From contig QPGO01000112.1 in the NCBI GenBank assembly GCA_008632985.1, positions 186,001 through 250,000 on the forward strand: a stretch of 64,000 nucleotides of DNA. Reading direction: 5' to 3'. Each line of letters begins with the position of its first letter. Position 1 is the first letter of the stretch. The notes under the pieces are model-generated. The model worked only from the letters and a program-made list of their open reading frames with translations, had not been told where the DNA came from and ran no database searches. The position numbers were made by a program, and so were the translations under genes. Shown here one piece after another: positions 6,419 to 64,000 of the stretch. The DNA is from Psammoneis japonica (taxonomy: Eukaryota).

Positions 6419-6442
6419 CTTGATATCAAGTATGCTCAATTT

Positions 6443-17435: not shown

Positions 17436-17825
17436 AATGCGGAAGAAATTCTTCTGATTGCAGGCGAACGCTGGGTGATAACTGAACCTGCCGGCAGCGA
17501 AAACAGGCACGTTTGAGAGTCTCCAAATCAGGGGCGTAATTTTCTTGGTGGGTTATATACAACGGATATCTGAGTAGTAGGTTCTGTTCACAAAACAAAG
17601 ACCGTCAATGCCAGCAACGTTTCCCGCTCGAGTGGCCTCAAGAAGCTGTCGTCGAGTCAATAGGTAGCTGTTACAAGTTGCAGAGCACAACAACAGCAAC
17701 ACTTTTTCAGAGCAAACAATCATCGACGGAAAAGCGCGGAATGCGTCCGCGCGACTCCGTCGAATGGAAAAAGAAGCCGGGGGGCGGTGTGCGGCGGGAA
17801 ATGAAAAAATGAGCTTCACATTCCC

Positions 17826-19481
17826 AGTGAACCCAATTTCCGTTCAACAACGGATTCTGCATTTTACTGAGAGTGAAAAGAGGCCACTCATTTCACATTC
17901 TTCCCCTCNNNNNNNNNNNNNNNNNNNNNNNNNNNNNNNNNNNNNNNNNNNNNNNNNNNNNNNNNNNNNNNNNNNNNNNNNNNNNNNNNNNNNNNNNNNN
18001 NNNNNNNNNNNNNNNNNNNNNNNNNNNNNNNNNNNNNNNNNNNNNNNNNNNNNNNNNNNNNNNNNNNNNNNNNNNNNNNNNNNNNNNNNNNNNNNNNNNN
18101 NNNNNNNNNNNNNNNNNNNNNNNNNNNNNNNNNNNNNNNNNNNNNNNNNNNNNNNNNNNNNNNNNNNNNNNNNNNNNNNNNNNNNNNNNNNNNNNNNNNN
18201 NNNNNNNNNNNNNNNNNNNNNNNNNNNNNNNNNNNNNNNNNNNNNNNNNNNNNNNNNNNNNNNNNNNNNNNNNNNNNNNNNNNNNNNNNNNNNNNNNNNN
18301 NNNNNNNNNNNNNNNNNNNNNNNNNNNNNNNNNNNNNNNNNNNNNNNNNNNNNNNNNNNNNNNNNNNNNNNNNNNNNTGCAGAAGCCACAACAATTTTTC
18401 AAAAACTGACCAAGGTGCCCATTGTGGCCACAACTCTGAACAACACTTGTCGTGACATGCTGGCTCAGTTTCAGCGACATGTCTGGCATTGCCAAAGTTG
18501 TCGTTTTTTGTTTTGTGGCTCAGCAGCTTGTTCAGAGCAGGCTCATTTGTTTGGAAAAGCTTCAGCTCAACTGCCCATTTCATTGCATTTTGTTGTTTTT
18601 TCTGCTGCATTTGTCTGGGCCTCTTTGTGGCATTGGTGCCCCACACAATGCAGCTGCCAATCATCTGTCGTTTGCATGAGAACAATGGCGCACTTCCCTG
18701 TTACAATCCACTGTGTCCTCATCATCAACAACTTCCAAGGTTGTTGAAAAATGACTGTTGACCTTGGCACGCAAAATTGAATTCACTGAATGTCATGTGC
18801 ATGGCTGAAAAAATCAATGCATCTGTCTGATTGTCCATCCGTCCAAATTTTGAATGCCACATGTGCGTGAAGAACCACTCTGACCGGAGGACCAACACAT
18901 TGTGGCTGCACTCTTCACAGAAAAGCCACAAGGTTTCAAAAACTAACCAAGGTGCCCAATGCAGCCAGGGGGCTCTGAACAACATTTTGTCTTGACACAC
19001 TGGCTCACTTTCAGCCACAAATCTGGCATTGCCAAAGTTCCTTGTCATTTTTTGGTTGGCGGTTGTTGACACTTTTCAAATGGCCATGGATTTGCAATGT
19101 TTTGTTTTGTCCTCTGTGACATGTTTCTGCTCAACAAGAGTGCAACTTGTCAATGACTGAAATTTTCACATGCACCCCAATTGCACCCACAGATTTTCAA
19201 CACACGTGAGCCCAGTTTCCATTCAACAACGGATTCTGCATTTTGCTGAGAGTGAAAAGAGGCCACTCATTTCACATTCTTCCCCTCCGCCACTCCTTTT
19301 GCCACACTCCGTTTGCACCGCATCACCATGCATTCACCGTGCATTCCGTGCTTCCACAAAAGAGAAGTGGGGTGTGATGGCCGCCACAGGTGCCACTCTG
19401 TGCTGAAGTTGGAGTGTGGCATGCCATCTGGCACACTGGAAGCTGATTGCATTGCAAAACAAATGAAAATCTGTGAAATGG
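17826..19481. repeat. Tandem ~1.38-kb unit, first copies (spans the gap)
   Basis: Near-identical to 33039-34423, 47966-49347 and 55544-56919. Confidence 0.85.
17909..18377. other. Assembly gap (469 N) inside the tandem unit
   Basis: Run of N. Both flanks match the tandem unit, and the size matches the corresponding empty-site segment 32852-33319. Confidence 0.95.
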
Positions 19482-22400
19482 TGACAGGATTTGAACAGGA
19501 TTTAGATGCTCGCGAAATGTCGCGCGCTGTTTAGTTTGCCGTGCACAGTTTTGTGTGCTTCAGTTCCGCGCATTCGCGCGCGATGCAGTTTGCTTTTGAG
19601 CCACAAGGCTCACAAGAATGACAACAGCAGCCTGATTGCACCGACTTGCATGTCTTTCGGCTCCTGCAACGGTCTCTGAGCGGAGACTCATCTGCCATTT
19701 AGACAGCAGCAAGGAGTCATTGTTTGAATTCTTGCCATTTGCCTTCAATTTCTGTCAGATTGACAGTCTTGCTCATTGTCAACCCATTGAGCAACCGCCA
19801 TCATTGTTGTTGATTTACCAACGACGCTGTTTCAATTCTGCGTGGACCTCCGTGTGTGTTCTACATGCATCGGCAAGTCTGCGCACATCCAACACCAGGG
19901 CATCGGCAGGAAGTTAACGTCACCGTCAAGTCTCCTTGCCGCTGGACATCTGGATTGATTGCACCACCTTTGATCGCTGAAGACATGCATTCAACGGTCA
20001 TGTCCAAGTCCATCCTTGATCCTTGTCCCTTGATGTGCCCATTCATTGGTTGACGGTCAAGAACCCTGCACATTCAAGGATCCTTGTCGCTGAAGACATG
20101 TGTGCACACACATGTCTTCACGGCCAAGAACCTGTGCCCACTCTTTGGACTGCGGTTTTTCCACCACTCTGCAAGCACACCGAGTCCATTGCACCTGATC
20201 TGCCCCGGACTGCTGGTGCTCTGCAGTTCTGCTGGGTCCACGAGGACGACTGTGAGAGCAAGTGGCCGTGATTGCAGCCTGCGTTGGGGCGAGGGTGCTT
20301 TCCCGCGTTTGTTCATTCGTCCACAGCGCCTGACGCCTGCATCAACTGGCCAGCCTGATCGGGAAATCCAACCGATGCAAAATGAGAACGGTTCGGGGGT
20401 CTTGTCCACCTCTGGTCAGCTTGCCTGCAGGGGTTTACAACCCGCTGCTCCGCTTGCAAGCAACCCAAAGCGCCGCCAGCTGCGGGTTCGGACGTGCCGG
20501 CACAACTCTGCAGACCGGATGGGAAGTTTAGCACTTGACAACGAACGGGACAGCACAACCCAGCGACTTCTGATTTTAAGGCAGTTCGAGATTTCAAGTC
20601 AAGTCTGCTTCAAGTCAAGTCCATTCTCACCCAAGTTTCAAGTCCACCTTCGCTTCCCAACAAGAATTGCTTGTCCTGACTCCGCTTTTGTCTGCCATGG
20701 TTCTCACTCGTCAGCAACAAACCGATGGTTTCGAGCACGTTGTTGGAACCGTGCTTGCCCAAGGTGCTGGGAGCCCTCTTCGTTTGGCTTTGGCCCAAGA
20801 CGGCACGGACTCGCATCAAGAACTGTTCACGTTCATGCCGTCCCAAATCAACTCGCTTGAGTGCGACAACGGCACCAATGTGATCCCTTTGCCCCACGGT
20901 TATAAGAACATGTTGGCAGCCCTGGTCAGTCTGCACATTGTCAAAGCACACGAAGGTCTTGACGTTGCCAATGACTCCTCGTTGTTCACGCATGACGAGT
21001 TCCTTGCCCACCGCCTCAGCCCCGACTGCATGTCTTCTGTGTCCATCGGCAGCTCACCCCTCGCACCTCCGCATGTCACCAACCCGACCAAGGCACGCGA
21101 CCTGGTGCGAGACTTCAAGCGAGGCATCAAGCGTGATCCCACCGCTTTCACGGCTCTCAAATCCGACAAGCAGTGGCACACTTGGCACACCTCACTTGTG
21201 GCACAAGCCCGTGCCCAAGACGTCGAGTGCACTCTAGACTCGTTGTACAAACCGACCAGCCCCGAAGACAAACTGCTCTTTGCTGAACAGCAAAAGTGCA
21301 TGTTCGCCGTCTTCGAACGCATCCTTCTCACCGACAAGGGCAAGGCTCTCATCCGCGAAAATGTGGGGTCTTCTGACGCCCAGACCGTCTGCCGCGCCTT
21401 GTCCGAGTGTGCGCTCGCCTCCACCCGCGCATCTGTCGAGTCCTCCACCTTGCTCACGCACCTTGCCACCGCACATCTTGGTGATGGTGCTTGGAAAGGT
21501 CCGACCCACGGCTTCATCCTTCATTGGCAAGACCAGTTGCGCAAGTGCGATGCACTTGTCCCGGCCAGTGACCACTTCTCTGAAGGACAGAAGCGCGTCA
21601 TGCTTGAGAATGCCACGCACCCTGTCGAGGAACTCCGTGCTGTCAAGAACCAAGCTGATCAGCATCGCACGCAGAGTGGCAAGAGCCTCACATGTGACCA
21701 ATGCTGCGGCTTGCTCCTCTCCGTGGCAGCTCAATGCGACAGTGCGTTTCAACCCAAGACAACACCTCGAGCTCCCCAACGCGCCATGTGCGCACACGAC
21801 GTCTGCTCCGAGGAACCATCCGACGATGTGTTCCACGACATTGACAGCGACATTGACGTCCTTCAGGCCAATGCTGCCTGCACCCGTGGTCCCAGCCTCA
21901 CCGGTGACCAATGGAAACGTCTCCCTCCCGACCACCAACGGATTTGGGATTCGTTGCCCCATTCCTCCAAGGCGATCATCCTTGAGCATTCTCGTCCACC
22001 TCCCCGCAACCCGCGAGCCAGCAACTGCCATGAGTCCGTTATGGCCAACCTTCATGACCAACGCCTTGGGAGTGACGGTGATGTCAACTTGTCCAACACG
22101 ACTCCTGCTGACTCTGGTGACCCCGCTCCAAATGTGGGCACCACTTCGGATGATCCCATCCTGGCGCACCTCACCAAGCGCAAGCCACTGCCACCTGGTG
22201 ATCTGCAACGTCTGTTGTCTCCTAACCAAGCCCCCAATGCCAGTCGACCGGGGCCATCCGCCGCTCCCTCCACCCCGCCAGCTTCTGCCGATGACACAGA
22301 ACTCAACGGCCGCACTTGCCGTCGCGCCAATGACCACAATGTCATTTGCTCTGCCTCTGCTCATTGCTCCACATGCACTGGTGCTCTAGTCGATCGTGGG

Positions 22401-25071
22401 GCCAACGGCGGCATTGCTGGTGACGACGTTCGCGTCATTGCACGCACCTCTCGCCAAGTCGACGTTCAGGGCATTGACGACCATCAATTGGTGGACATCC
22501 CTGTTGTCACCGCTGGCGCCGTCATTGAGACCCAGCGTGGTCCCGTCATCGCCATCCTCCATCAGTGCGCGTGCACGGGAAAGGGCAAGACCATCCATTC
22601 CTGCGGCCAGCTTGAATGGCACAAACAGGATGTCCACGATCGCTCTGTCAAGGTGCCCAACGGCTTGCAACGCATTGCCACTCCTGATGGCTGTGTCATC
22701 CCCATTGACATCAAGGCCGGCCTGCCTTGTGTTGCCATGCGACCTTGCACTGACGCCGAATGGGACACCCTGCCCCATGTCATCCTCACCGGTGATGACA
22801 CATGGGATCCTTCCGTCCTCGATCACTCTGTCACTGATGGCGACCAGTGGTGCGACGCGATCTCTGACCTGCAGGACGATCCCACTGCCAACCCATTTGA
22901 CGAACACGGCAACTGCCGTCATCGTGTCGTTGTCAACGAGACCATCATGTCCGCTTCCTTGTCTGCCGATCACGCGTCCGCCCTCGATGATCACCTCATT
23001 CCAAATGACGACGTGTTCTACGAGTGTCATCCACACGCGATTGACCCCAAGGGCGACGACGTCCCGCCCCCGGAGCGCACTGTACAGCCCAAGGACCCCC
23101 CCTTCGAGTCTCTTCGGCCTCACTTTGGCTTCCTGCCTGCCGATGCGGTCCGTCGTGCTTTTGACTGCACCACGCAGTGCGCCCGCATGCCTGCCGGCAC
23201 ACACCTTAGGAAGGCCTGCAAATCACCCAACCCCGCCCTTAACGTGCACCGCCGCAACGAGCCTGTCGCCACTGACACCATTTGTGCCGACACCCCGGCT
23301 GTCGACTCTGGTTGCACCAGCGCCCAACTGTTTGTTGGCACCGAGTCTACCGTCACTGACGTCTGCAGCACCAAGACGGACAAAGAGTTTGTCAACACAC
23401 TCGAGGATCAGATCCGTGAGCGTGGTGCCCCATCCAAACTCATTGGCGACCGTGCTCAAGTTGAGATCAGCAACAAAGTGCTCGGGATCCTACGAGCCCT
23501 CTTCATCTCCAGCTGGCAAAGTGAGCCTCACCAGCAACAACAAAACTTTGCCGAGCGTCGACACCAGACCGTGAAGCGCATGGCAAACACTGTCATGGAT
23601 CATTTTGGTTTGCCCGCCCACACATGGCTGCTGGCGCTCATGTGTGTGTGCTTCATGCTCAACCATGCAGCGTCCCCACGTCTCCACTGGTGCACGCCCC
23701 TCGAGACTCTCACTGGCTCCACCCCGGACATCAGCCCATTGCTTTGCTTTCACTGGTGGGAACCCGTGTGCTTCCACCTCAATGACTCCGATTGGCCGTC
23801 CGAATCCCGTGAGTTGCGTGGACGCTTCGTTGGCATTGCTGAGCACGTCGGCCACCAGATGACCTTCAAGATTCTCTCTGACAAGACTCAGAAGATCCTC
23901 CACTGGTCCAACGTACACTCCGCTGCCACCGATCCTGCCGTTCGAAACCTGCATCTTGATCCTCCTGATGGGAGCCACCTGAACCCATCATCAAATCTCG
24001 CCATGACGACAACCCCGTCGATTCTCCTGATGGGAAGATCAGGACACCCAAGATGCCAGTTTTCGATCCGCAAGACATCATCGTACCTTCCTCATGCAGC
24101 CACAAGAGGACGGACAATGCCACAGAGCTCGCATCGTCAAGGCCGTCGAAGACCATGAATGGAAAGTGAACGGCAATCCCGAGCTTGCTAAGTTCGTCTG
24201 CTCTGTCAACAACGATGAATGCGAGGAAGTCCTTGCCTGCAACGACATCATGAATCACATGAGCAAGAAGACAAAGACACTGCTGTTTGGAAATTCCGAC
24301 GCATCGTGTCACACGAAGGACCTCTGAAGCCTCATGACCCAACCTGGAAAGGCTCAAGCTACAACATCATGCTTGAATGGGAAAGTGGGGAGATCACGTC
24401 CGAGCCTCTCGCCATCATTGCCAAGGATGACCCCGTCACCTGCGCCATCTATGCACGAGAGAACGGACTTCTCGACACGGATGGCTGGAAGCGGTTCCGC
24501 ACCATCGCGAGGCACCAAAAGAAGCCATTTCGCATGGCCAACCAAGCCAAGCTTCGCTCCTTCCGCACTGCACCTCGCCACAAGTGCGGATGCAAAGTTC
24601 CCCGGAACTGCAAACACGCCATGTCACTAGACGAGCGCAACGGCAACCGCAAATGGGGAGACGCAACTAATCTCGAGATGGCCAACTCGGGGAATACGAA
24701 GTCTTCCATGACTGCGGCCCTTCGAGTCTTCCACTCCTCCTGCGGGACACAAGAAGATCCGAGTGCACCTGGTGCACGACGTGAAACACGACGGTCGCCA
24801 CAAGGCACGACTCGTAGCCGATGGGCACCTCACGGACATGCCTGTCGACAGTGTCCACTTCGGAGCAGTCTCCCTCCGTGGCCTTCGGTTGATGATTTTC
24901 CTGGCCGAACTCAACGAGTTGGAGACATGGGCCACCGACATTGGCAATGCCTGTCTTGAAGCCACCACTGAGGAGAAGCTCTACATTGCAGCCGGACCCG
25001 GATTTGGCAAACTCCAAGGACACATCCTTGTCATCCACAAGGCCCTGCATGGGCTGCGCAGCTCCGGTCTC

Positions 25072-28000
25072 AGTCGAGATGCAGTCCCACAGCTGAGTGG
25101 GATGGACAAGACCTCGGAGGTTGGCAGCAATGTGAGTGGCGACAGAGGCAAACAGACGCTTGTTGAAAGTCGTTGTCCAGAAATTGTGACGAATGTCGTT
25201 GCTTCTGTTTGAATCGATTTTGTGATGAGCCAATTATTTTCGAAGAGAAAATCTGAGTCTGGGTTGCAGTCGTGAGATGTGACCAGAATGACGTTGAGTC
25301 GTGACTCTCCCTCTCAACCGAGAGAGCTCACCAGCCCACAAGAGCCTTTCCAGCCGCACGGAACGCATCGGTCCGTAGTCCCTTCGTGAACTGATCGGCC
25401 AGTTGCTCTAGAGTGCTGACAGGTTGGATGTCGATCTCCAATTGTTCGACTTTAGTCCTAAACCAGTGGTGCGGGGTGCCGATGTGTTTGGTTCGCGGAG
25501 ACAACTTGGGCGTGCGTGCGAACTTGAGGCACGCGGAGTTATCTTCGTACACAACGGACGCAGGCAGGACATTCTGCTCTACAGGCGAGTCATCGGTGCC
25601 TTGGGTTGCGAGCTCAAAAGCCTTGGAGTGAGTCGTGATGGGGTTTTGGTGGTCAGACTTTCCAAGTGCGTGGTGGTTGGGCTCCTTGAGAACTTCACGA
25701 GTGGGGATGAGATCGCGCATGGCTTGAGAAAGTGCGACATGTTCCGCTTCCATGGTCGACAATGCTGCAAGAGTCTGCAGCTTGGACACCCAGACAAGCG
25801 GGCAGCCGGCGCAGCAGACAAGGTGTCCAGTCCTGGACTTGACAGAAACTGGGTCTTGACCATCTTCCACACCAAATGACCCCGCGAAGTCAGAATCGAC
25901 GCAACAATCAACTCGATGATCTTGCGCAGGCTTGAGAATGAGACCTTCAGCAGCAGTTGCTTTGAGGTGTCGGAGCATCCGCTTCACTGCAGCAGCGTGG
26001 GACGCTCGGGGCGCAAACGAGAATCGAGCTGCTTGATGTGTGGCATGTGCAATGTCTGGCTGGCTGTTCGCTGCCAAGCACATCAACATTCCAACAACTG
26101 AGCGATAATCGCAGGGTTCATCAAAAGGCAGGCCGTCCGTGTTGGCACCAACAGCCGCAGGTAGAGCTGGAGTAGATGCTCCATTGCAATCCTGCATCTG
26201 TGCGGCACGCAGGACCTTGTCAATTAGACCGGGTTGAGTGAGTAGAAATCGACCCTCGGAGAGCTTTTCGATCTTGACACCGAGAAAGTTGCCGACTTCT
26301 CCTTCGTCTCTAAGTTCAAATGCGTGGCGATGTTCGTCGTCGGAGACTCCTAACTTGCGAATTTCGGCTTCTAGAGCTTCAGCTGAAGCTCCAGCAAAAA
26401 CGGTGTCGTCGACGTGCACCACACACATCATGCCCTCTTTGAAATACAAACAGGGATCTATGGCTGAAGGTGCCCATCCGCGCTTGGTTAAACCAGCTCG
26501 CAACTTCTCGCAGAAGCCCTTGGGAGACTGTTTTAGGCCGCACAGTCCTTTCAAAAGTTTGAGAACCATGTTGAGTCCCGACCTTGGCGCAAATCCCTTC
26601 GGCGGTGTTATGCAAACTTCTTCAGCGATGTCAGCTTGGCAAAAGGCTGTGGCACAGTCCACCTGTCATGCAGCCCATCCCTCCTTTAATGCCGCAGTGA
26701 GCATGAGTCGGATGCTGGACCATTGCACAACCGGCGCGCAGGTTTCGAAGCAGTCGACTCCTTCTTTCTGCAATCACCGCGGACGCAGTGTCGGGCCTTG
26801 TGCTTGAGAGGGGTTCCATCTGGGAGTCTCTTGAGCTTTGGTGCCCATGTGCCTGGAAGTGCATTCATGTGCAGCTGACGCTCGACTGCTTTCCAGGCTC
26901 GACGATGTGTGAGTGCGTTGACTTCAATTTTCATCGCCTTGATCCATTCGTTGGCGTCCGGACCTTTCAGAGCATTGTGTGACGAAGGCACATCAGGGTC
27001 CTTGGTTTTCTTGCTAGCTGCGCATGCTCGTGGATCGCCGATGTTGATGGCACCACTGTCCAAATCCATCTCGAGAGTCACCAGATGCGCTGGTTGAGCC
27101 TCGTGTCCGATCGGCAGCGGCATTTCCTCAACGGAGCTGAAGCAGACCTCATCTACAAACTTGGCAGAGTTGAACTGTCCCTTGGTTGACCGTGAAGACC
27201 GTCGCAGCCCTGGTGCTCCCTCTGGATTCGTCACAGGAGGTGTCTTGACTGGGGGAGGAGCTGTTGGTTCCGTCGGCGCTTCGGGTGGCGGAAGTCCGTT
27301 GCCATCTTGAGGTTCAGGTGGCTGAATTGGCGCAGAGTCCGCAGAGTCTGCAGGTTTTTGAGTCGCAGGTGGGACTGGTGGCGTTGGCTGCTGAGTCGCA
27401 GGTGCGACTCGATCGGTGACGTCGTCGCGAGAAATGGGTGAGTCCGGCACAGTGATCGATGGAGTGGGCTCAAAATGCCCGCGAATGCGTGTTGCTCTGG
27501 CCAGTTCTCGTTCTTTGCATTGACGCTCTGGAGGGGCAAGCCACTCATCGTGTAAATGAACTGCCTGATCCTTCTCCAGAGGGATGCACATCGATTGGTT
27601 GAGGCACAAGTGTTCCCAGTGATCAGGTGGATCCGTCTCCCTCTCGATTGATGGTGCGGCAGTGAAGAGATCGTCAAAGACCACATGATGCTGAGGTGCA
27701 ACACTTCCAGTTTGAAGATTGAGGACCAAAGGAACCTCACTGGAATGGATGGCACTGAGTCCCACGAACAAAGCGCGACAAGTGCGAGGCTCCCAACGCG
27801 GGAGCTTCTTCCCGGAAGCGAGGGTCGGGTCAAGTGCGTACGCTGGACATCCCCATGTGTGAATGTCGCGCAACCGATGTCTTGGCACTGTCGAACCGGT
27901 GAAAATGTCCGCTGGGCAATGTCCTTTGGAATTTGGGGTGACATTGTAGATGTGCGTGGCACAAGAAACTGCCATGGGCCACAGGGAGCTGTCAATCCCC

Positions 28001-30920: not shown

Positions 30921-30922
30921 GC

Positions 30923-31247
30923 GAATGCTGTACACTGCCTGACGAGTGCGGGAGGTTCTCAACAACCCAAGAGGCAAAGAAATTACCACTCGGCTAATTG
31001 TTGAGTCCCTTCTCCGCACACACATTCAGGCATGTGTTGTGCACAGCATCATCACACAGCATTTGTCCAACTCTCCCTCTCGTCGCAGGATGGGGCATCG
31101 CCTTGGGGGGCGCATCCGCACGGCGGACTTACAAATTTGACCATGCACTCCCTCTGATGGGCAGGATGGGCAGCGCCATGTGGCGCATCCGGCCAAGGGA
31201 GGAGTGGGTTCGAAGCCCAACCGCCCACCCCGGATGGGGTTGGAAAG
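30923..31247 (-). mobile_element. Truncated copy of the TRIM-like element (one 150-bp repeat plus part of the interior)
   Basis: Matches 45892-46214, then jumps into RT/RNase H sequence of element A (~866 bp missing relative to copy 2). Confidence 0.75.
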
Positions 31248-45890: not shown

Positions 45891-45891
45891 T

Positions 45892-46451
45892 GAATGCTGT
45901 GCACCACCTGACGAGTGCGGGAGGTTCTCAACAACCCAAGAGGCAAAGAAATTACCACTCGGCTAATTGTTGAGTCCCTTCTCCGCACACACATTCAGGC
46001 ATGCGTTGTGCACAGCATCATCACACAGCATTTGTCCAACTCTCCCTCTCGTCGCAGGATGGGGCATCGCCTTGGGGCGCATCCGCACGGCGGACTTACA
46101 AATTTGACCATGCACTCCCTCTGATGGGCAGGATGGGCAGCGCCATGTGGCGCATCCGGCCAAGGGAGGAGTGGGTTCGAAGCCCAACCGCCCACCCCGG
46201 ATGGGGTTGGAAAGGGGCAGGCCGAGAAAGAAAAGGAGGCTTGGATTTGAGGCCGACTCGAACCAGCGACCTCAGGAAGCGTAAAGACTCATAACCACTC
46301 AGAATGCTGTGCACCACCTGACGAGCACGGGAGGTTCTCAACAACCCAAGAGGCAAAGAAATTGCCACTTGGCCAATTGTTGAGCCCCTTCTCTGCACAC
46401 ACATTCAGGCATGTGTTGTGCACAGCATCATCACACAGCATTTGTCCAACT
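45892..46451 (-). mobile_element. TRIM-like non-autonomous LTR element (~560 bp): 150-bp direct repeats at 45892-46041 and 46302-46451
   Basis: On the minus strand: repeat, GGTTATGAGTC (resembles the half-tRNA-iMet PBS of copia/Ty5), 260-bp non-coding interior, PPT gagagggag, repeat. Confidence 0.7.
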
Positions 46452-52300: not shown

Positions 52301-55300
52301 CTACCGTCACTGACGTCTGCAGCACCAAGACGGACAAAGAGTTTGTCAACACACTCAAGGATCAGATCCGTGAGCGTGGTGCCCCATCCAAACTCATTGG
52401 CGACCGTGCTCAAGCTGAGATCAGCAACAAAGTGCTCGGGATCCTACGAGCCCTCTTCATCTCCAGCTGGCAAAGTGAGCCTCACCAGCAACAACAAAAC
52501 TTTGCCGAGCGTCGACACCAGACCGTGAAGCGCATGGCGAACACTGTCATGGATCGTTTTGGTTCGCCCGCCCACACATGGCTGCTGGCACTCATGTGTG
52601 TGTGCTTCATGCTCAACCATGCAGCGTCCCCACGTCTCCACTGGTGCACGCCCCTCGAGACTCTCACTGGCTCCACCCCGGACATCAGCCCATTGCTTCG
52701 CTTTCACTGGTGGGAACCCGTGTGCTTCCACCTCGATGACTCCGATTGGCCGTCCGAATCCCGTGAGTTGCGTGGACGCTTCGTTGGCATTGCTGAGCAC
52801 GTCGGCCACCAGATGACCTTCAAGATTCTCTCTGACAAGACTCAGAAGATCCTCCACTGGTCCAACGTACACTCCGCTGCCACCGATCCTGCCGTTCGAA
52901 ACCTGCATCTTGATCCTCCTGATGGGGAGCCACCTGAACCCATCATCAAATCTCGCCATGACGACAACCCCGTCGATTCTCCTGATGGGGAGATCAGGAC
53001 ACCCAAGATGCCAGTTTTCGATCCGCAAGACATCATCGGACGCACCTTCCTCATGCAGCCACAAGAGGACGGACAACGCCACAGAGCTCGCATCGTCAAG
53101 GCCGTCGAAGACCATGAATGGAAAGTGAATGGCAATCCCAAGCTTGCTAAGTTCGTCTGCTCTGTCAACAACGACGAATGCGAGGAAGTCCTTGCCTGCA
53201 ACGACATCATGAATCACATTGAGCAAGAAGACGAAGACACTGCTGTTTGGAAATTCCGACGCATCGTGTCACACGAAGGACCTCTGAAGCCTCATGACCC
53301 AACCTGGAAAGGCTCAAGCTACAACATCATGCTTGAATGGGAAAGTGGGGAGATCACGTCCGAGCCTCTCGCCATCATCACCAAGGACGACCCCGTCACC
53401 TGCGCCATCCATGCACGAGAGAACGGACTTCTCGACACGGATGGCTGGAAGCGGTTCCGCACCATCGCGAGGCACCAAAAGAAGCCATTTTGCATGGCCA
53501 ACCAAGCCAAGCTTCGCTCCTTCCGCACTGCACCTCGCCACAAGTGCAGATGCGAAGTTCCCCGGAACTGCAAACACGCCATGTCACTAGACGAGCGCAA
53601 CGGCAACCGCAAATGGGGAGACGCAACTAATCTCGAGATGGGCCAACTCGGGGAATACGAAGTCTTCCATGACTGCGGGCCCTTCGAGTCTTCCACTCCT
53701 CCTGCGGGACACAAGAAGATCCGAGTGCACCTGGTGCACGACGTGAAACACGATGGTCGCCACAAGGCACGACTCGTAGCCGATGGGCACCTCACAGACG
53801 TACCTGTCGACAGTGTCCACTCCGGAGCAGTCTCCCTCCGTGGCCTTCGGTTGATGATTTTCCTGGCCGAACTCAACGAGTTGGAGACATGGGCCACCGA
53901 CATTGGCAATGCCTGTCTTGAAGCCACCACTGAGGAGAAGCTCTACATTGCAGCCGGACCCGAATTTGGCAAACTCGAAGGACACATCCTTGTCATCCAC
54001 AAGGCCCTGCATGGACTGCGCAGCTCCGGTCTTCGCTGGCACGAGCGCTTTGCCGACTGCCTGTGAGCTGAAGGCTTCTTCCCCTGCCGCGCCGAACCTG
54101 TCATTTGGATGCGCAGGAATGGCGACCACCATGAGCACATTGCCGTTTATGTGGATGACCTCGCCATTGCTGTGAAGGACCCTCAATCTTTCGTCGACAC
54201 TCTCACGGTAAAGTGCAAGTTCAAGCTCAAGGGTGCGGGACCCATTGAGTTCCATCTGGGTTGCGACTTTTCCCGGGATCCCGACGGCACCTTGAGCCTG
54301 TCTCCGCGCAAGTACATCAAGTGCATGGTCGACAGCTGCACCCGACTGTTTGGGGAGAAACCCACCACCAACGCCCTGTCACCTCTGGAGAAGGGTGACC
54401 ACCCCGAACTGGACACTTCCGAACTGCTGGAGCCCAATGGCATTCACAAGTTCCAGTCCCTTGTTGGCTCACTCCAATGGGCAGTGTCTCTTGGTCGAAT
54501 TGACATCACCACGGCCATCATGTCACTCTCCAGCTTCCGAGCTGCGCCCCCTCAAGGCCACTTGGATCGTGCCAAACGCGTCTGTGGGCACCTCTCCAAG
54601 ATGCGACACGGCGCTCTCCGCGTTCGCACGGAAGAGCCCGACTGTTCGGATCTCCCTGCTCCGGCCTGTGAATGGATGCATTCCGTGTACGGCGAAGCAG
54701 AAGAGATGATCCCGAAGGACGCTCCACCGCCCCTTGGCAAGTTCGTCACTGCCACCCACTGCGTCGATGCAAACTTGTGCCATTGCATGCTCACCGGACA
54801 CTCTGTCATGGGAATGCTCCACTTCCTCAACAAATTCCCGGCTGATTGGTTCTCTAAGAAGCAAGCCACTGTGGAGACTGCGACCTGCGGGTCTGAATTT
54901 GTTGCCGCAAGGACTTGTGTCAAGCAGATTGTCGACCTGCGCATCACCCTGCGCTGCCTCGGCGTCCCGACCCGTAATGTCAGTCACATGTTCGGTGACA
55001 ACAAGTCAGTTGTAGACAGTGCCACCATCCCGCACTCCAAGTCACACAAGCGACACACCGCACTGTCGTTCCACCGTGTGCGTGAGGCAATCACCTCTGG
55101 TTGCCTTGAGCTCCACTTCATCGAAGGCTCCTGCAACCCTGCTGACATTCTCAGCAAGCATTGGGGTTGCTCCCAAATCTGGGACCTTCTCCGCCCCCTC
55201 ATGTTCTGGAACTTCATTCCATCCAAAGTCGAATCTGTTTCTGTGACTCCTCAAGCAAACTGGGGAGTGACAGGATTTGAACAGGATTCAGGTGCGCGCG

Positions 55301-55543
55301 AAATGTCGCACGCTGTTTAGCCCACCGCGCACAGTTTTGTGTGCTTTGGTTCCGCGCGTTTGCGCGCGATGCAGTTTGCTTTCGAGCCACAAGGCTCACA
55401 AGAATGACAACAGCAGCCCAATTGCACCGACTTGCACGTCTTTTGGCTCCTGTGACGGTCTCTGAGCGGAGACTCATCTGCCATTTAGACAGCAGCAAGG
55501 AGTCATTGTTTGAATTCTTGCCATTTGCCTTCAATTTCTGTCA
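49348..55543 (+). mobile_element. Ty1/copia element A, copy 3. No nested insert; ~0.9-kb deletion of 5' LTR and leader at ~49430; 3' LTR 55268-55543
   Basis: Single-frame gag-pol from 49651 to 55320 broken only by two CGA->TGA stops (51694, 54064); TSD AATGG. Confidence 0.95.
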
Positions 55544-57255
55544 AATGGGGTCACTGCATTGCATCTCTTTCATCGCTGCGTGCTCACTGGCTCCCCTCGA
55601 CCCATGTTGGCATGACTGCGTTGCTGCACTGCTGCTCAGCCAAGCCACAGATTGGCTCATGTGCCTTGTTTTTGTGGATCTTGGGTGCCCTCCCGAGAAC
55701 AAGAGGTGCTTCCACTTTTCCCAAATGTGAGCAGCCACAGCTGCAATGTGCACTTTTCTTGCTGGGCACAAGAAGCGAAGAGGTCAGCTGGCCAGAAACA
55801 AAATTTTGCAGCTGCGCTCTCTATGCAGAAGCCACAACAATTTTTCAAAAACTGACCAAGGTGCCCATTGTGGCCACAACTCTGAACAACACTTGTCTTG
55901 ACATGCTGGCTCAGTTTCAGCCACATGTCTGGCATTGCCAAAGTTGTCGTTTTTTGTTTTGTGGCTCAGCAGCTTGTTCAGAGCAGGCTCATTTGTTTGG
56001 AAAAGCTTCAGCTCAACTGCCCATTTCACTGCATTTTGTTGTTTTTTCTGCTGCATTTGTCGGGGCCTCTTTGTGGCATTGGCACCCCACACGGTGCAGC
56101 TGCCAATCATCTGTCGTTTGCATGAGAACAATGGCGCACTTCCCTGTTACAATCCACTGTGTCCTCATCATCAACAACTTCCAAGGTTGTTGAAAAATGA
56201 CTGTTGACCTTGGCACGCAAAATTGAATTCACTGAATGTCACGTGCATGGCTGAAAAAATCAATGCATCTGTCTGATTGTCCATCCGTCCAAATTTTGAA
56301 TGCCACGTGCGCGTGAAGAACCACTCTGACCGGAGGACCAACACATTGTGGCTGCACTTTTCACAGAAAAGCCACAAGGTTTCAAAAACCAACCAAGGTG
56401 CCCAATGCAGCCAGGGGGCTCTGAACAACATTTTGTCTTGACACACTGGCTCACTTTCAGCCACAAATCTGGCATTGCCAAAGTTCCTTGTCATTTTTTG
56501 GTTGGCGGTTGTTGACACTTTTCAAATGGCCATGGATTTGCAATGTTTTGTTTTGTCCTCTGTGACATGTTTCTGCTCAACAAGAGTGCAACTTGTCAAT
56601 GACTGAAATTTTCACATGCACGCCAATTGCACCCACAGATTTTCAACACACGTGAACCCAGTTTCCGTTCAACAATGGATTCTGCATTTTGCTGAGAGTG
56701 AAAAGATGCCACTTGTTTCACATTCTTCCCTCCGCCACTCCTTTTGCCACACTCCATTTGCACTGCATCACCGTGCATTCACCGTGCATTCCGTGCTTCC
56801 ACAAAAGAGAAATGGGGTGTGATGGCCACCACACTCTGAGCTGAAGTTGGAGTGTGGCACGCCATCTGGCACATTGGAAGCTGACTGCATTACAGAACAA
56901 ATGAAAATCTGTGAAATGGGGTCACTGTGTTGCATCTCTTTCATTGCTGCATGCTCGCTGGCTCCCCCCTCAACCCATGTTGGCATGACTGCATGTCATT
57001 GCTGCACTGCTGCTCAGCCAAGCCACAGATTGGCCCCTGTGCCTTCTTTTTGTGGATCTTGGGTGCCCTCCAGAGAACAAGAGGCACTTCCACTTTTCGC
57101 AAATGTGAGCAGCCACATCTGCAACATGCACTCTTCTTGCTGGGCACAAGAAGCAAAGGTCAGCTGGCCAGAAACAAAATTTTGCAGCTGCGCACTCTCT
57201 GCAGAAGCCACAACAATTTTTCAAAAACTGACCAAGGTGCCCATTGTGGCCACAA
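55544..57255. repeat. Tandem units with a second empty target site (AATGG at 56915-56919)
   Basis: Same empty-site unit subtype as around 33034. Confidence 0.9.
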
Positions 57256-58170
57256 CTGTGCGGAAGTGACCGTGGCATTCCATCACATGCTCAAGTGGGA
57301 TCTTCGTGAGAGCTTCAAGTCCATCAATATTTTGTGTGTAGCTGCGCAACAATTTCTTTTGTTTTGCAAGCAAAGCAACAAAGACATGAGTGCAGGTCGG
57401 CGAATGACGCAATCCTGGCCAAATGCTCTATGCCAGAGAACAGAATGGCTCGGGATTCCTCTTGTAAAAACCAACATCAAAGATCGCTTCAGCGCAAGGC
57501 AAATCACACTTTTGCAGGTTGTCATGGAGGCCTGTCCCCGGTGTACGAAAGTCGGGAATTCCAGCGCTGCACGACACACCCGCACCACTCAATGCGACAA
57601 TTCTTTTTGAGTTGCGGATCCAATCGGCCACCAATCGAAAGTCTTTAGAGAACTTTGGAGTTGAGATGTTCAACTTCTCGATCTCCTGCGTTATTTTGTT
57701 GAGTGGCTCGTCCGTGTTAGACCTAGATTTATCAGAATCATTCGAAGCCTTTGCCTCTTCGTTGTCGGAAGCAGTCATAATGCGGAAGAAATTCTTCTGA
57801 TTGCAGGCGAACGCTGGGTGACAACTGAACCTGCCGGCAGCGAAAACAGGCACGTTTGAGAGTCTCCAAATCAGGGGCGTAATTTTCTTGGTGGGTCACA
57901 TACAACGGATGTCTGAGCAGCAGGTTCTGTTCACAAAACAAAGACTGTCAATGCCAGCAACGTTTCCCGCTCGAGTGGCCTCAAGAAGCTGTCGTCGAGT
58001 CAACAGGCAGCTGTTACAAGTTGCAGAGCACAACAACAGCAACACTTTTTCAGAGCAAACAATCATCGACGGAAAAGCGCGGAATGCGTCCGCGCGACTC
58101 CGTTGAATGGAAAAAGAAGCCGGGGGGCGGTGTGCGGCGGGAAATGAAAAAATGAGCTTCACATTCCCAG
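57256..58170 (-). pseudogene. Duplicated 5' half and upstream region of the sirtuin gene; hypermutated, with a nonsense mutation
   Basis: Colinear with 16913-17827 (offset 40,343). Tyr->Cys/His changes (GLYDNLQKYNLPY -> GLHDNLQKCDLPC) and a CAG->TAG stop at 57428-57430. Confidence 0.95.
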
Positions 58171-58445
58171 TGAACCCAATTTCCGTTCAACAACGGATTC
58201 TGCATTTTACTGAGAGTGAAAAGAGGCCACTCATTTCACATTCTTCCCCTCCGCCACTCCTTTTGCCACACTCCATTTGCACTGCATCACCGTGCACTCA
58301 CCGTGCATTCCGTGCTTCCACAAAAGAGAAGTGGGGTGTGATGGCCGCCACAGGTGCCACTCTGTGCTGAAGTTGGAGTGTGGCATGCCATCTGGCACAC
58401 TGGAAGCTGATTGCATTGCAAAACAAATGAAAATCTGTGAAATGG

Positions 58446-58721
58446 TGACAGGATTTGAACAGGATTTAGATGCTCGCGAAATGTCGCGCGCTGTTTAGTT
58501 TGCCGTGCACAGTTTTGTGTGCTTCAGTTCCGCGCATTCGCGCGCGATGCAGTTTGCTTTTGAGCCACAAGGCTCACAAGAATGACAACAGCAGCCTGAT
58601 TGCACCGACTTGCATGTCTTTCGGCTCCTGCAACGGTCTCTGAGCGGAGACTCATCTGCCATTTAGACAGCAGCAAGGAGTCATTGTTTGAATTCTTGCC
58701 ATTTGCCTTCAATTTCTGTCA
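58446..58721 (+). mobile_element. Solo LTR of element A
   Basis: 276-bp TGACAG...CTGTCA flanked on both sides by AATGG. Confidence 0.95.
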
Positions 58722-59825
58722 AATGGGGTCACTGTGTTGCATCTCTTTCATCGCTGCGTGCTCACTGGCTCCCCTCGACCCATGTTGGCATGACTGCATT
58801 GCTGCACTGCTGCTCAGCCAAGCCACAGATTGGCTCGTGTGCCTTCTTTTTGTGGATCTTGGGTGCCCTCCAGAGAACAAGAGGTGCTTCTACTTTTCCC
58901 AAATGTGAGCAGCCACAGCTGCAATGTGCACTTTTCTTGCTGGGCACAAGAAGCGAAGAGGTCAGCTGGCCAGAAACAAAATTTTGCAGCTGCGCTCTCT
59001 TTGCAGAAGCCACAACAATTTTTCAAAAACTGACCAAGGTGCCCATTGTGGCCACAACTCTGAACAACACTTGTTGTGACATGCTGGCTCAGTTTCAGCG
59101 ACATGTCTGGCATTGCCAAAGTTGTCGTTTTTTGTTTTGTGGCTCAGCAGCTTGTTCAGAGCAGGCTCATTTGTTTGGAAAAGCTTCAGCTCAACTGCCC
59201 ATTTCATTGCATTTTGTTGTTTTTTCTGCTGCATTTGTCTGGGCCTCTTTGTGGCATTGGTGCCCCACACAATGCAGCTGCCAATCATCTGTCATTTGCA
59301 TGAGAACAATGGCGCACTTCCCTGTTGCAATCCACTGTGTCCTCATCATCAACAACTTCCAAGGTTGTTGAAAAATGACTGTTGACCTTGGCACGCAAAA
59401 TTGAATTCACTGAATGTCACGTGCATGGCTGAAAAAATCAATGCATCCATCTGATTGTCCATCCGTCCAAATTTCGAATGCCACACACGCGTGAAGAACC
59501 ACTCTGACCAGAGGACCAACAAATTGTGGCTGCACTCTTCACGGAAGCCACAATTTTTCAAAACTGACCAAGGTGCCCAATGCAGCCGGGGCTCTTAACA
59601 ACATTTTGTCTTGACACACTGGCTCACTTTCAGCCACAAATCTGGCATTGCCAAAGTTCCTTGTCATTTTTTGGTTGGCGGTTGTTGACACTTTTCAAAT
59701 GGCCATGGATTTGCAATGTTTTGTTTTGTCCTCTGTGACATGTTTCTGCTCAACAAGAGTGCAACTTGTCAATGACTGAAATTTTCACATGCGTGCCAAT
59801 TGCATTCACAGATTTTCAACACACA
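58722..59825. repeat. Last, partial tandem unit
   Basis: Matches 47966-49068, then similarity ends. Confidence 0.85.
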
Positions 59826-62800
59826 CAGTTGTCAACTTTGTTTCTTGGCAGTCATTGAGTCACAAACAATTGAATCTTTTTGCTTGTTTTAAGCCACCTG
59901 TGTGGCTCATTCTGTTCACATTTCAAACACTTGTCAAGAACTTTCATTTGTTTTTCCCTCCATTTGTCAGGTCTCTGCCTTTGTTTGAGTCACCTGTGTG
60001 GCTCACACAAGTGTTTTCTCTGTGCACTGCAGTTTGCTGGTTTGATCTGTCATGGTGAAGGGAAGTGAGCTTGGTGATGTGTTTCTGAAAGGCACTCAAG
60101 CAAGCTTTGCACAAGATGTGTTGGTTGACAAGACTCTTGAGACACAGCATTTTTGCTTTGGCAGTTGTGTGAGAGAGCTTTGCAGGCAGAGTCACTGCAA
60201 AACAATCAGTCAGGAGATCACGGTTGAAGTGCTGACATGTCCTGTCCTCTTTTCCAGGTCTGCCAGGAGAGCTGCAGTGATGGTGATGTGTGAAACAACC
60301 AAGGCAAGTGTGAAAAGGTTGCTCGTCATTGTGGAATTTTTCACAATGCAGTGCATGCTCACAGGCATTGCTTTTGTTTCATTTGGCAGCACAGGCATGG
60401 CATCATTTTGGCTTGGCAGAAGGATTGGTCACTTTCTTGCACTTTTGAGCATGAGATCCTTGCTTGCAAGCTTGCAAGAATTTCTTGGATGCAAGCCAAT
60501 GTGAACTCTTTTGGGTGGCTTGCTCATTTCACATGTGACGTGGACGATTGTCACAGGCCTTGGCAGTGCAGTCAAAATTGAGGCCGCCATTTCAATGCCA
60601 GAAGACTGGTCTCCAGACACTGGATTTTATGGGGAGCAGCAGTCAAGGTAAATGTTGGTGAGAAGGGATGCAATGCAGGTCAGTTTGTTCATGCTCATTG
60701 GCTTCTTTGACTTCTCTGCCATGCAGATGATGCTCACAGTGCTTGGACCTTCAATGCACACACTTTTTAGAGACTGCTGCAGCAGAAGGGGGTCCAAAGA
60801 CTGCGCTGCAGATTCTCTTGTTGGGCAGGTTGGTCACAGCAGACAAGAATTTACAAGATGGGAGACAACTCCCAGTTGCAGCTGGCCATTGAAAGCACCA
60901 GTCCATGCCACTTTGTGATGTTGCTCTTTGACAAAGCCATTCTCATCATTGCAGCAATGATTTCTGGTGCTTGGAGCCCGGCAGAGAGAGCTGCCTGCAC
61001 ACTCACAACTCACCAAGTCCTGGATCAAACCCACCTTTTATGGTTAAATGGCGCCAATTGTGCTTGTTGATTCTTGCTGTTGCTCACATTCAATGTCCTT
61101 CTGTGCAGCAGATGCTTCCTGGACTGTTGCACAGTGTGCAGTCTGCATCATTGACAAACCGCGCATCATTCTGTGCATGCAAAATGATGAAAATGTGTGT
61201 CCAACAGAAGGGCTCCGGCCAGCTGTTGTCATTCAATTGCCCCTGGTGGCATTTTCTGCAGTTTGGCCCCAATCTTAGAAGCATTGGCCACTCAAAAATG
61301 CCTCTTTGCAGACAATGTGAACAACTCAAGCTGCGCTCTGAATCAACTTGATTGGAGCTGGCATGCTCACAGAGTCCGATGTCCAACTGCTTGCGGCTCC
61401 CAAGGAACACACAAAATTTTGACACCTGGTGACTTCCCAGGAGGACAGTCTCCTTGGGTCACAGAGGGTGGCATTTGAGCCATTGATTGAAACTTTTGGA
61501 TGGATCAAAGCAGACATTGTTTCATCTTTCATCAGCCACACATCCTCCATTTCGAGAAGGAGTTCATTCTGGTGTTGAGTTTGACGACATGTCTTGGTGT
61601 CTCCAGTTGGAGCAACAAGCTTGCCATGTGGATGGTGCTTGATGCACAGGCCAGCGCCACTTGAGAAACTGAAATGGAGCATGTGGTGGTGTCCCCATGT
61701 CCCAGCAAACATTTGCCAAATGCCAAGCCAGATCATCATCATTGCCACAAATGCACATTGGTTTGAGTTGCTGCCTGCATGACATGCACCCCAAATGCAC
61801 TCAGTTGCATTTGTTGAGCAGGTTGGCCCAATTGTTGTGTCTTTGCATTCTTGATTTGGGAAGCTGCAAGCCTTGTTTTTGGGCAGCAGCAGACCCTTGC
61901 ATGATTCCTCCACAAACAAAAAGATGCCCAGCTGCACAACAAGGTGTGGAAGCATCAGGCCCACAGATGTGGCAAAGGAGGTGTGCAGTTGTCTTTGGAT
62001 GGCATTGGAGGACTCCAGCGGGTTGCCAGGGACATGCCAACAACCATGGTTGGGGAGCATGTCAATGCAGCACCTTGTCTCTCTGACATTGCTGGCTTTG
62101 GCCCAGCCAGCCGCAACCTGCAGCCAGAGACAAGGGAAACATCTGTGAAACAGTGCATGTGCTCTGTCATCTCTGGATGGCCTTGGATGACTCCATCAAG
62201 ATCCAGAGGATGCAATGACAACAATGACTGGGAATCAAAGGCCTCATCTCATGTCAACACAGCACCCTGTCTCTCTGACATGGCTGGGTTCTTTGGCCCA
62301 GCTGCCCCACCCACAGAGACAAGAAAACCATCTGTGCAACAGTGCAAGTGCCGAGTCATCTTGGGATGGCTTTTGGTGACTCCATTGGATCCCAGGAGAG
62401 CCAACAACAACAATGGCTGGGAAGCAAAGGCCTTGTCTTGTGTCAATGCAGCACCTTGTCTCTCTGACATCATGGCTGGTGGGTTTGGCCCAGGCAGCCC
62501 CCCCACCTGCAGAGACAAGAAAACCATCTGTGCAACAGTGCAAGTGCTCAGTCATCTTGGGATGGCTGTTGGTGACTCCACTGGGTCCTTGAGGACACAA
62601 CAGCAACAATGGTTGGGAAGCAAAGGCCTTGTCTTGTGTCAACACAGCACCTTTTCTCTCTCACACAACTGGGTTTTGCGCTGCCACCAAGAACCCAAAT
62701 TTGCAAGGAACACAAGAGAACCATCTGTGTGACAGTGCAAGCACTCAATTGTCGTGGGTTTGGCACAAGAGACTCCACTGGGTCCCTGAGGAGGCAAGAA

Positions 62801-64000
62801 CCACAATGGCTGGGAAAGAAAAGCCTTGTCTTGGGCCAATGCAGCCCCTTTTGTTTCTGATGTGATTGTGGCTTGCTTTGGCCCAGCCACCCCACCTGCA
62901 GAGACAAGGGAGCTTTCTGGCTTTTTGACAGTGCAAGTGCTCAGTTGTCTTTGGATGGCCTTGGGTGCTTCCATTGCATCCCAGGGGAGCCAACAACAAC
63001 CAGGGCAGGGAGTCAGTGAATGGAAATTGACGGTGTTCCCTGTCTCTTGTTTGGACGGAAAACCAAGAGAGAACAGAAGAGAACAACCCACCTTTGAGTT
63101 GCCCACTTTCTTTGCAAGGTTGGTCTCCAAAGTTGTCATTTCACTGGCACAAAGGGTCTGTTTTTGAGCTTTCTGGAGAGAGTCAATTGTCTTGTTGGCA
63201 GTGGCAATTTTTGCACCGCGGGCTTTGCACTTTTGCTGCAGCTGCCAGCACATCTTTTCGTTTTGGTTTTTGCAAAGGGTGCGCATCTGCCAGCAAAACA
63301 ACAGCCACATTCTGCACTCATCACCAAACATTTTTTTGGATTGATGCATCAGGTGGCGTGGTGCTTGGAGGCTCCAAACAGCAAGGGAGCATTGTGGGAA
63401 GGGACTTTGTTGTGCTCCTTGAGAAAGTTGAGATCTTCTTGTCAAACTGCAGGGGAACAGATGTCAGACACATTGCCAAAGGTGTTGGCTTCTTCATTGA
63501 TGGAGGCAGCAGCAGCAGCAGCAGATCCTGGGTTGCTGGCTGGCAGAGCATGCATGGCTCCAGACAAAGAGCCTTGATGTTGCCCCAAAGGCTTGTCCTG
63601 GAGCCTCACCTGGGCTGCCTGGGAGGACCTTGCTTGACCTTGCGCTTGAGCACCACGAGCACCACCTCCACCATGGTCGCCAGTGGCGCCGGTGTGACTG
63701 GCGCTGTTGTGGCCAGCACCTTGTGGGTTCTGCTTCTTTCTTCTTTTTCTTGGTGGCGAGACAAGGTGACATGGGGCCACAGCACCACAAGATCCTCCTT
63801 CTTGTGTGGTGCTCAACCCCACAGCTCTTAAAGTCACACCTGGAGCTCACCAGACACCACCAGCATCCTCAGCTTGTGACTGTTTGGCTGGTTTTTGCAG
63901 CCATGGGCCTCTTCTTTGCTCTGGAGTTCCTTTGGAAGCTCAAGTCTGCTGCCATTTGGGGCAAGGTGACATGGGGCCACAACCACACAAGACAGGCCTT
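59826..64000. repeat. Degenerate TpA- and CpG-depleted repeat-like DNA
   Basis: About 9 TA seen by eye in 4.2 kb, nearly all preceded by T; CpG rare; no credible protein. Confidence 0.6.
62040..63000. repeat. Diverged tandem repeat, ~192-bp period, about 5 units
   Basis: A gcacc-tgtctctctgaca-like anchor recurs at ~62070, 62262, 62451, 62647 and 62841. Confidence 0.8.

Follow-up and report, generated by a model that had tools for sequence, protein, structure and literature searches.

Directional conversion of TpA to CpA or TpG in a repeat domain of Psammoneis japonica, with a possible DNA adenine deaminase as its agent

To our knowledge, all known permanent mutation of a genome's own repeats or retroelements starts at cytosine, whether by repeat-induced point mutation (RIP), by APOBEC editing or by decay of 5-methylcytosine (5mC). 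Here we describe a stretch of 64,000 nucleotides from Psammoneis japonica (assembly GCA_008632985.1, contig QPGO01000112.1, positions 186,001 to 250,000 of the forward strand; the whole stretch is called the window), in which TpA steps have been converted to CpA or TpG in two copia-type element families, copia A and copia B, and in a fragment of a host Sir2 gene embedded among them, while the genic copy of that fragment was spared. This finding fits none of the known kinds of targeted hypermutation.

RIP, which depends on RID and DIM-2 in Neurospora and other Ascomycota, resembles the process in the window in being a massive, context-specific transition hypermutation of chromosomal DNA that is confined to repeats and transposons and ruins their coding capacity. 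However, RIP changes C:G to T:A at CpA, so that TpA and stop codons arise and the GC content falls, whereas the process described here changes A:T to G:C at TpA, destroys TpA, cannot create stops and raises the GC content. RIP also mutates both members of a duplication, whereas the genic member of a 914-bp pair was spared here (22 vs 2 changes), and it is fungal, whereas the lineage of the window is diatom-like. Classical RIP was rejected as an explanation because the direction was opposite (TA>CA/TG, 22 vs 2) and only one member of the pair was mutated.

The A-to-I deaminases (TadA/ADAT, fungal ADAT-based mRNA editing, ADAR and the TadA-derived editors) share a chemistry that gives A>G transitions. 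All natural A-to-I deaminases known to us act on RNA; activity on DNA needed laboratory evolution. The natural target of TadA/ADAT, A34, follows U33 and stands in U-A-C in bacterial tRNA-Arg, a context that resembles the T-A-Y context of the window, and ADARs prefer 5' neighbors in the order U>A>C>G and a 3' G. Whereas these enzymes have an RNA substrate, the process described here acts on chromosomal DNA in place; its requirement for a 5' T was near-absolute (1 of 412 A/T positions outside TA changed), its 3' preference was for a pyrimidine (TAY), and the 3'-G preference of ADAR was not seen. Polymerase eta, in its WA mutagenesis during somatic hypermutation, also makes A>G changes at TA, but its hits at AA and its transversions were missing here. 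The deamination of 5mC operates in this repeat domain too and likewise ends in TG and CA, but starts from a different dinucleotide and proceeds in the opposite direction (G:C>A:T). APOBEC3 acting on retroelement cDNA likewise leaves a heritable, deaminase-based hypermutation footprint in long terminal repeat (LTR) retroelements, as described in PMC4866542, but its changes fall on cytosine, on one strand, and are tied to reverse transcription, whereas in the window adenine or thymine is changed, both strands are affected and the changes postdate DNA duplication.

No description of TpA>TpG/CpA hypermutation was found in the literature searched, which largely left subscription journals outside, and this agrees with an earlier note on the same DNA, made by a model from the letters alone, which knew of no described system that does this. 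By term look-up, neither PMC2806351 nor PMC8147415 yielded a passage concerned with dinucleotides, TpA, RIP or hypermutation. The passages found in the same way in PMC5889660 dealt with algal AID/APOBEC-like deaminases and TadA only, and mentioned a TadA mutation that raises activity on DNA.

Conversion of TpA within the repeat domain

The window consists of a gene island flanked by repeats (Table 1), and the two differed sharply in TA. In 2-kb steps, the observed/expected ratio (O/E) of TA was 0.01-0.31 at 1-4000 and 18001-64000 as compared with 0.53-0.78 at 4001-18000, and the O/E of TG and CA was 1.2-2.3 in the TA-poor domain as compared with 0.96-1.25 at 4001-18000. Counted per 500 bp, TA occurred 0-13 times in all repeat windows and 14-44 times in the windows of 3501-17500. 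In total, there were 298 TA in 48.6 kb of repeats (6.1/kb) and 647 in the 14.3 kb of the gene island (45/kb), just as the earlier note had claimed in calling TA nearly absent from the repeats and common in the island. The boundaries of the depletion lay at about 3000-3500 and 17700-17830.

The Sir2 fragment gave the direction of the change. The sequence at 16913-17908, comprising the 5' part of the Sir2 gene, the region upstream of it and 82 bp from the start of the adjoining repeat, was found duplicated at 57256-58251 within the array, with 96.9% identity in a self-comparison. Because the gene/repeat junction at 17826/17827 recurs at 58169/58170, this copy was made at the DNA level. Over the 914 host-derived bp (96.6% identity), all 31 differences were transitions, with 0 transversions; 22 were TA>CA/TG, 5 were CpG>TpG/CpA, 2 ran in the opposite direction and 2 were of other kinds. 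The embedded copy had lost 22 of its 34 TA sites, 16 to CA and 6 to TG, and conversion affected the coding part (15 of 24) and the non-coding upstream part (7 of 10). Changes were found at 22 of 68 A/T positions inside TA and at 1 of 412 outside (odds ratio 197, Fisher p=1.6e-19). These results uphold the central proposal of the earlier note, that A:T is converted to G:C at TpA in repeat DNA, together with its expectation that substitutions would be enriched at TpA.

The genic copy reads TGLYDNLQKYNLPY, with Tyr residues as in human SIRT2, and the embedded copy reads LHDNLQKCDLPC, in which Tyr codons have become His or Cys codons and one in-frame stop is present. Since the genic copy shares its Tyr residues with human SIRT2, TA is the ancestral state and only the copy in the repeat domain was mutated; no more than 2 of the differences could reflect a loss of TA on the genic side, and the pair contained 0 CA-vs-TG sites. 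There were also 0 double TA>CG changes, which fits a mechanism that needs an intact TA step. CpG decay had affected 5 of 58 sites in the embedded copy and none in the genic copy, so that within the same 914 bp the loss of TA (65%) was ~7.5 times more complete than that of CpG (8.6%). The sparing of the genic twin (22 vs 2) argues against a RIP-like sensing of homology and suggests that targeting follows the chromatin domain. Thus, the earlier description of the process as repeat-restricted stands for the repeat domain but should not be read as repeat-induced in the sense of RIP. GC-biased gene conversion, which predicts A/T to G/C changes in all contexts, was rejected on the near-invariance of A/T positions outside TA in this pair and on the O/E of AA, TT and AT in the repeats, which was 0.65-1.6.

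The segmental unit allowed a second comparison, between its copies 1 and 2. Both carry the same junction of a copia B nested inside copia A, whereas the third copy of copia A has an empty site, and the shared junction marks copies 1 and 2 as segmental DNA duplicates. Between them, TA was present in both at 83 sites and stood against TG or CA at 35, and CA stood against TG at 27; CG was present in both at 758 sites and stood against TG or CA at 105. A CA-vs-TG site arises only if an ancestral TA (or CG) was hit twice, and the 27 observed compare with ~3.7 expected under a uniform site rate by arithmetic on the pair counts. This excess indicates a very hot class of TA sites that was hit independently in both copies after the duplication, together with a refractory class. 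At 3 sites, TA was kept in copy 3 and copies 1 and 2 had differing products. Independent hits at the same TA sites after duplication demonstrate in-place action on chromosomal DNA.

The unit pair differed by 211 transitions and 15 transversions, and among the TA changes transversions numbered 0 of 22 in the Sir2 pair and 1 of 36 in the unit pair. Over 110 inferred events, the hit rate of a T depended on its 5' neighbor (A 0.37, G 0.39, C 0.17, T 0.14). At sites where only one T has a 5' purine, that T was hit 50 times as compared with 21 times for the other (p=8e-4), and the pooled odds ratio for a 5' purine was 3.2 (p=4e-7). The resulting motif, RTA>RCA, is TAY>TGY on the opposite strand. ATAT occurred once among the surviving TA sites of the repeats as compared with 53 times in the genes; the survivors were also short of ATAC and ATAG and relatively rich in CTAA and CTAC. 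Strand-coordinated clustering was not significant, either among the Sir2 events (7 runs vs ~9.7 expected) or in the order of Tyr>Cys and Tyr>His changes along copia B (8 runs vs ~8.5 expected). In copia B (25071-31247 and 40016-46455), many surviving TA sites are flanked as CGTA or GTAG(A) and recur at matching positions of the two copies; they may reflect local protection or a refractory context.

The repeats fall into two classes of composition. LTR-like segments, satellite and flanks were low in both TA and CG, and the copia bodies (GC 53-60%) were TA-poor with a CpG O/E near 0.85. The LTR-like segments had a CpG O/E of ~0.15-0.6 and GC near 47%, as compared with ~0.85 and 55-60% in the internal part of the array; since LTR-like and internal copies are similarly diverged, it is native composition, methylation level or age that sets these parts apart. 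Where the gene island ends on either side, CpG-dense, TA-sparse stretches (3000-3500 and 17673-17826) abut the repeat domain and may represent boundary elements or promoter-like CpG islands.

Tyrosine loss in the copia families and their relatives

The same conversion was visible in the proteins of both copia families. The P0001 protein of copia B contained 8 Tyr among 1491 residues (0.54%), as compared with 2.2-3.9% in the 120 homologs listed. Of the 26 conserved Tyr columns, for which a Tyr share of 70% or more among 60 homologs was required, copia B kept Tyr at 4; the others held Cys (10), His (6), Phe (3) or, once each, Arg, Trp and Ile. It kept 521 of 634 conserved columns overall, and the other residues that were lowered were Ile (11 of 28 kept), Met (7 of 11) and Thr (19 of 29). 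Copia A retained Tyr at 4 of 20 conserved columns and had Cys at 7, His at 6 and Phe at 3, with the remaining tabulated residue classes 77-100% kept. A blastx tally for copia B counted 516 Y>C and 477 Y>H among 1832 aligned Tyr. Because Cys (TAY>TGY) and His (TAY>CAY) were about equally frequent, both strands had been hit. All motifs in which the earlier note had recognized displaced Tyr residues were present (LCGLKQ twice, LHGLRS three times, HVDD twice, EAEHVA twice and TCGSEF three times), and the possibility it had raised, that relatives natively carry Cys or His at such positions, found no support, as 60 to 150 relatives carry Tyr instead.

We next surveyed 79 environmental relatives, which had a TA O/E of 0.23-0.88 and Tyr read as Cys or His at 2-16%, as compared with 54% for copia B; the hypermutation signature, taken as Tyr>Cys/His loss, was found in 0 of these 79 metagenome sequences. 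One of them, a 3788-bp metagenome contig with a copia relative (L071), combined a TA O/E of 0.23 with a normal Tyr pattern and changes that were mostly Y>F. This sequence looks natively TA-poor, and low TA by itself is no proof of the hypermutation described here.

Among 150 representatives related to copia A (query window 51901-54066), there were four outliers, P0250, P0256, P0214 and P0258, from Logan, ENA and JGI assemblies and with 35-57% identity to the window element. Two of these fragments, of 335 and 253 aa, were free of Tyr with Cys and His at 4-6% each; another had 0.7% Tyr, and another had Cys or His in place of Tyr at 4 of 4 conserved columns. Judged from such fragments, the same footprint may be present in other assemblies or families.

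A total of 82 open reading frames of at least 150 aa were found in 17764-64000 and 1-2400, many of them overlapping across frames inside the repeats, and copia B copy 2, a dead element, held a fully open frame of 1491 aa. The loss of TA removes TAA and TAG, and A>G and T>C changes cannot make stops; long open frames in these repeats are therefore no sign of function.

A proposed mechanism weighed against its rivals

We propose, with a probability of roughly 0.55, that a directional TpA>CpA/TpG process acts in place on silenced repeats and that its agent is likely a DNA adenine deaminase. Such a process would convert the T:A pair of the TpA step to C:G, turning TA into CA or TG, on chromosomal DNA within a CpG-decaying, presumably methylated, heterochromatic repeat domain, and would run ~100-fold above background and ~10-fold above CpG decay at susceptible sites. 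It would produce transitions on both strands about equally, with a preference for a T that has a 5' purine, and would stop after one hit per site because TA is then gone. Unique genes, including the genic twin, would be spared, since the chromatin domain and not mere duplication would set the target. The direction, sequence context, spectrum, in-place action and domain restriction follow directly from the comparisons above. The agent is presumably an enzyme, likeliest a DNA adenine deaminase that would turn A into inosine, read as G, and would be recruited to silenced repeats.

Among the chemistries considered, adenine deamination agrees best with a spectrum of transitions only, an almost absolute requirement for TpA and the preference for T-A-Y. 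The A>I chemistry predicts A:T>G:C transitions only, and this is what was observed, with a single transversion among the 36 TA changes of the unit pair. The accompanying CpG decay (5 of 58 sites in the embedded Sir2 copy; 105 unit sites) suggests that methylated or silent DNA is targeted. With Tyr codons destroyed and no stops created, the transposons would be permanently inactivated, and the nature of the targets suggests a role in genome defence. More tentatively, a natural enzyme of the diatom lineage might deaminate chromosomal adenine at T-A-Y and be recruited to methylated or silenced repeats as a heritable "anti-RIP" defence; such an enzyme would erase the Tyr codons and TATA-like signals of transposons without creating stops.

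Several points weigh against this proposal. The majority sequence of the three copia A copies has only 28 TA sites, of which most are now stable (20 invariant), and the process would therefore be saturating, strongly site-dependent or episodic. The LTR-like segments, satellite and flanks might have been TA-poor already at their origin. On the + strand, T>C changes (52) outnumbered A>G changes (34), a weak excess that was not significant (p=0.07). The deaminase step is something that we infer purely from the footprint, and the targeting of methylated or silent chromatin something that we infer from CpG decay alone. No candidate enzyme gene was found among the proteins of the 64-kb window, as the earlier note had said. 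All of the evidence comes from this one window and one sample, and the read support consists of contigs from a run, X1, that is possibly the assembly's own sample.

Of the rivals, a chemistry on the thymine side survives best and is nevertheless unlikely. Here, a TET/JBP-type thymine hydroxylase would modify T at TpA in silenced DNA, and the resulting 5-hydroxymethyl- or 5-formyluracil would mispair with G and yield T>C. The attacked base of the T:A pair is indistinguishable, RTA>RCA and TAY>TGY being the same event, and base J and 5-hydroxymethyluracil are found at T before A in kinetoplastid telomere repeats and in dinoflagellates. 5-Formyluracil does mispair with G, but it also yields transversions, which were nearly missing from the TA changes of both pairs (0/22 and 1/36), and we know of no TET/JBP-type enzyme or thymine modification in diatoms.

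Editing tied to retrotransposition, in which an ADAR- or ADAT-like enzyme would act on element RNA or first-strand cDNA before the copies integrate and are later amplified as DNA, is distinctly unlikely. It would suit the predominance of copia and LTR-like sequence among the affected DNA, the stability of most remaining TA sites in copia A, as after a one-off event, and the liking of A-to-I enzymes for a 5' U. However, the Sir2 fragment, with its promoter and its gene/repeat junction, points to DNA duplication and yet has lost 65% of its TA. In addition, the segmental duplicates differ from each other at 35 TA-vs-TG/CA and 27 CA-vs-TG sites, 3 of them polarized; sense and antisense changes are about equal (Y>C vs Y>H, 516/477 in copia B and 7/6 in copia A); and the preferred 3' base is a pyrimidine and not the G of ADARs. 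RNA editing fixed by reverse transcription was rejected because it fails on the Sir2 fragment, the post-duplication differences and the strand symmetry.

It is just as improbable that no dedicated enzyme is involved and that damage or misincorporation at TpA occurs everywhere and is repaired only in transcribed, open chromatin. Chromatin-dependent repair would fit the domain restriction and the spared genic twin too, but the untranscribed upstream region of the genic Sir2 copy retains its TA (10 of 10), the signature was absent from the 79 environmental relatives, and we know of no spontaneous lesion that is TpA-only, transition-only and ~100x above background.

Native poverty in TA, or an artefact of assembly or base calling such as a misread modified base, is very improbable. 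The low TA of L071 without Tyr loss and the possible origin of the reads in the assembly's own sample speak for it. Against this, Cys and His stand at conserved catalytic Tyr positions in two families and a host gene fragment, and the copies differ among themselves at TA sites, as they would not after a systematic miscall. The sequence was also reproduced at the places checked by contigs of run X1, assembled from k-mers, of which 536 of the 554 aligned were at least 99% alike to the window and those that matched it exactly had a depth of 29-220. An exact unitig of this run (57440-57556, depth 29) spans four changes specific to the embedded Sir2 copy, and the unitigs of the genic copy (depth 68-75) differ from it at exactly the expected positions. 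Thus the TA loss, which the earlier note had wanted verified in reads, recurs in these contigs, which are not raw reads. In run X2 no contig aligned to the window, in X3 four short ones did, and parts of the window are without cover.

Error-prone synthesis at WA motifs by a polymerase-eta-like enzyme during repeated repair of heterochromatin, which the earlier note had listed beside a deaminase as a candidate, is scarcely credible and was rejected: WA comprises two motifs, TA among them, and polymerase eta errs most often by A>G, but AA was untouched (1/412 outside TA vs 22/68 inside), and zero transversions in 22 changes has a chance of ~1e-5 if 40% are expected.

If true, the proposed process would represent a new class of mutagenesis, programmed or semi-programmed and targeted by chromatin domain, and the first such in stramenopile algae; if the deaminase reading is true as well, it would provide the first natural DNA adenine editor. 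It would explain a compartment that is poor in TA, rich in TG and CA and full of spurious open frames, and such a compartment will lead gene callers, repeat-dating methods and RIP indices astray. Present adenine editors are built on laboratory-evolved tRNA deaminases, and an enzyme acting on DNA adenine would matter directly to base editing. The high specificity of the footprint makes the claim easy to test.

Organization of the window

Table 1. Features of the 64-kb window, in order of position.
Feature	Coordinates	Strand	Remarks
Left flank, degenerate, ~3 kb	1-3000	.	TA 0-2 and CG 0-7 per 500 bp; TG/CA excess; no recognizable coding content
Gene island (internal control)	3500-17826	.	~14 kb; TA normal
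Nrap/NOL6 gene, in three pieces	7154-11404	+	Gene island
HSF-type DNA-binding gene	11684-12895	-	Gene island
Sir2-family (deacetylase) gene	16452-17510	-	Gene island
Genic member of duplicated pair (Sir2 5' part and upstream region)	16913-17826	-	34 TA sites
TA-depleted repeat domain (46-kb array, right of island)	17827-64000	.	N gap at 17909-18377
Segmental unit (14.9 kb), copy 1	18378-31247	+	LTR-like segment, copia A, nested copia B
Copia B copy 1	25071-31247		
Segmental unit (14.9 kb), copy 2	33320-46214	+	
Copia B copy 2	40016-46455	-	Holds open 1491-aa frame 40272-44747 (P0001)
LTR-like 1.65-kb segment between copia A copies	47784-49429	+	Poor in TA and CG
Copia A copy 3	49430-55362	+	B insertion absent (empty site near 54032); outgroup
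Sir2-fragment copy inside repeat array, hypermutated	57256-58169	-	914 bp
196-bp tandem repeat, 4.9 copies	62060-63011	.	0 TA in 500-bp windows 62001-63500

The repeat domain contains an N gap at 17909-18377. In the self-comparison, segmental copy 1 matched 33320-46214 with 97.9% identity over 12.9 kb, and ~866 bp of copy 2 at 46215-47079, comprising the end of the nested copia B and adjoining copia A, was missing from copy 1. Further LTR-like copies were found near 18378-19560, 33320-34502, 55363-56919 and 58445-59824. For copia B itself, no direct repeat of at least 60 nt was found that could represent its LTRs, and its ends aligned locally only poorly.

Judged by their domains and affinities, copia A and copia B appear to be Ty1/copia LTR retrotransposons of the diatom CoDi-like kind. 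An RVT_2 reverse transcriptase was found in copia B (E=3e-32), with weaker RVT_2 matches in copia A. Copia B showed 55-59% identity to its relatives, which include two proteins named from Fragilaria crotonensis and a marine transcriptome entry. Copia A was 56-57% identical to P0149 and P0150 but only ~21% identical to the relatives of copia B, and it therefore constitutes a second lineage. A Pfam scan of 15 open reading frames from the flanks, the LTR-like segments and the 5' part of copia A left 14 without a family, and the remaining one matched MSG at 21.4 bits, under the cut-off of 22; a scan of 3 open reading frames of the left flank found 0 families.

In the gene island, the best named relative of the Nrap protein was from the diatom Seminavis robusta (37% identity), and oomycete proteins reached 24-26%. 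Together with the relatives of the copia polyproteins, this indicated a diatom, or a close relative of diatoms, that lacks near neighbors in the databases. In run X1, the summed k-mer depth was 1.4e4 to 2.3e5 at 58450-58789 as compared with ~30-400 elsewhere in the window, indicating that the LTR-like piece located there is a very high-copy repeat in the sample.

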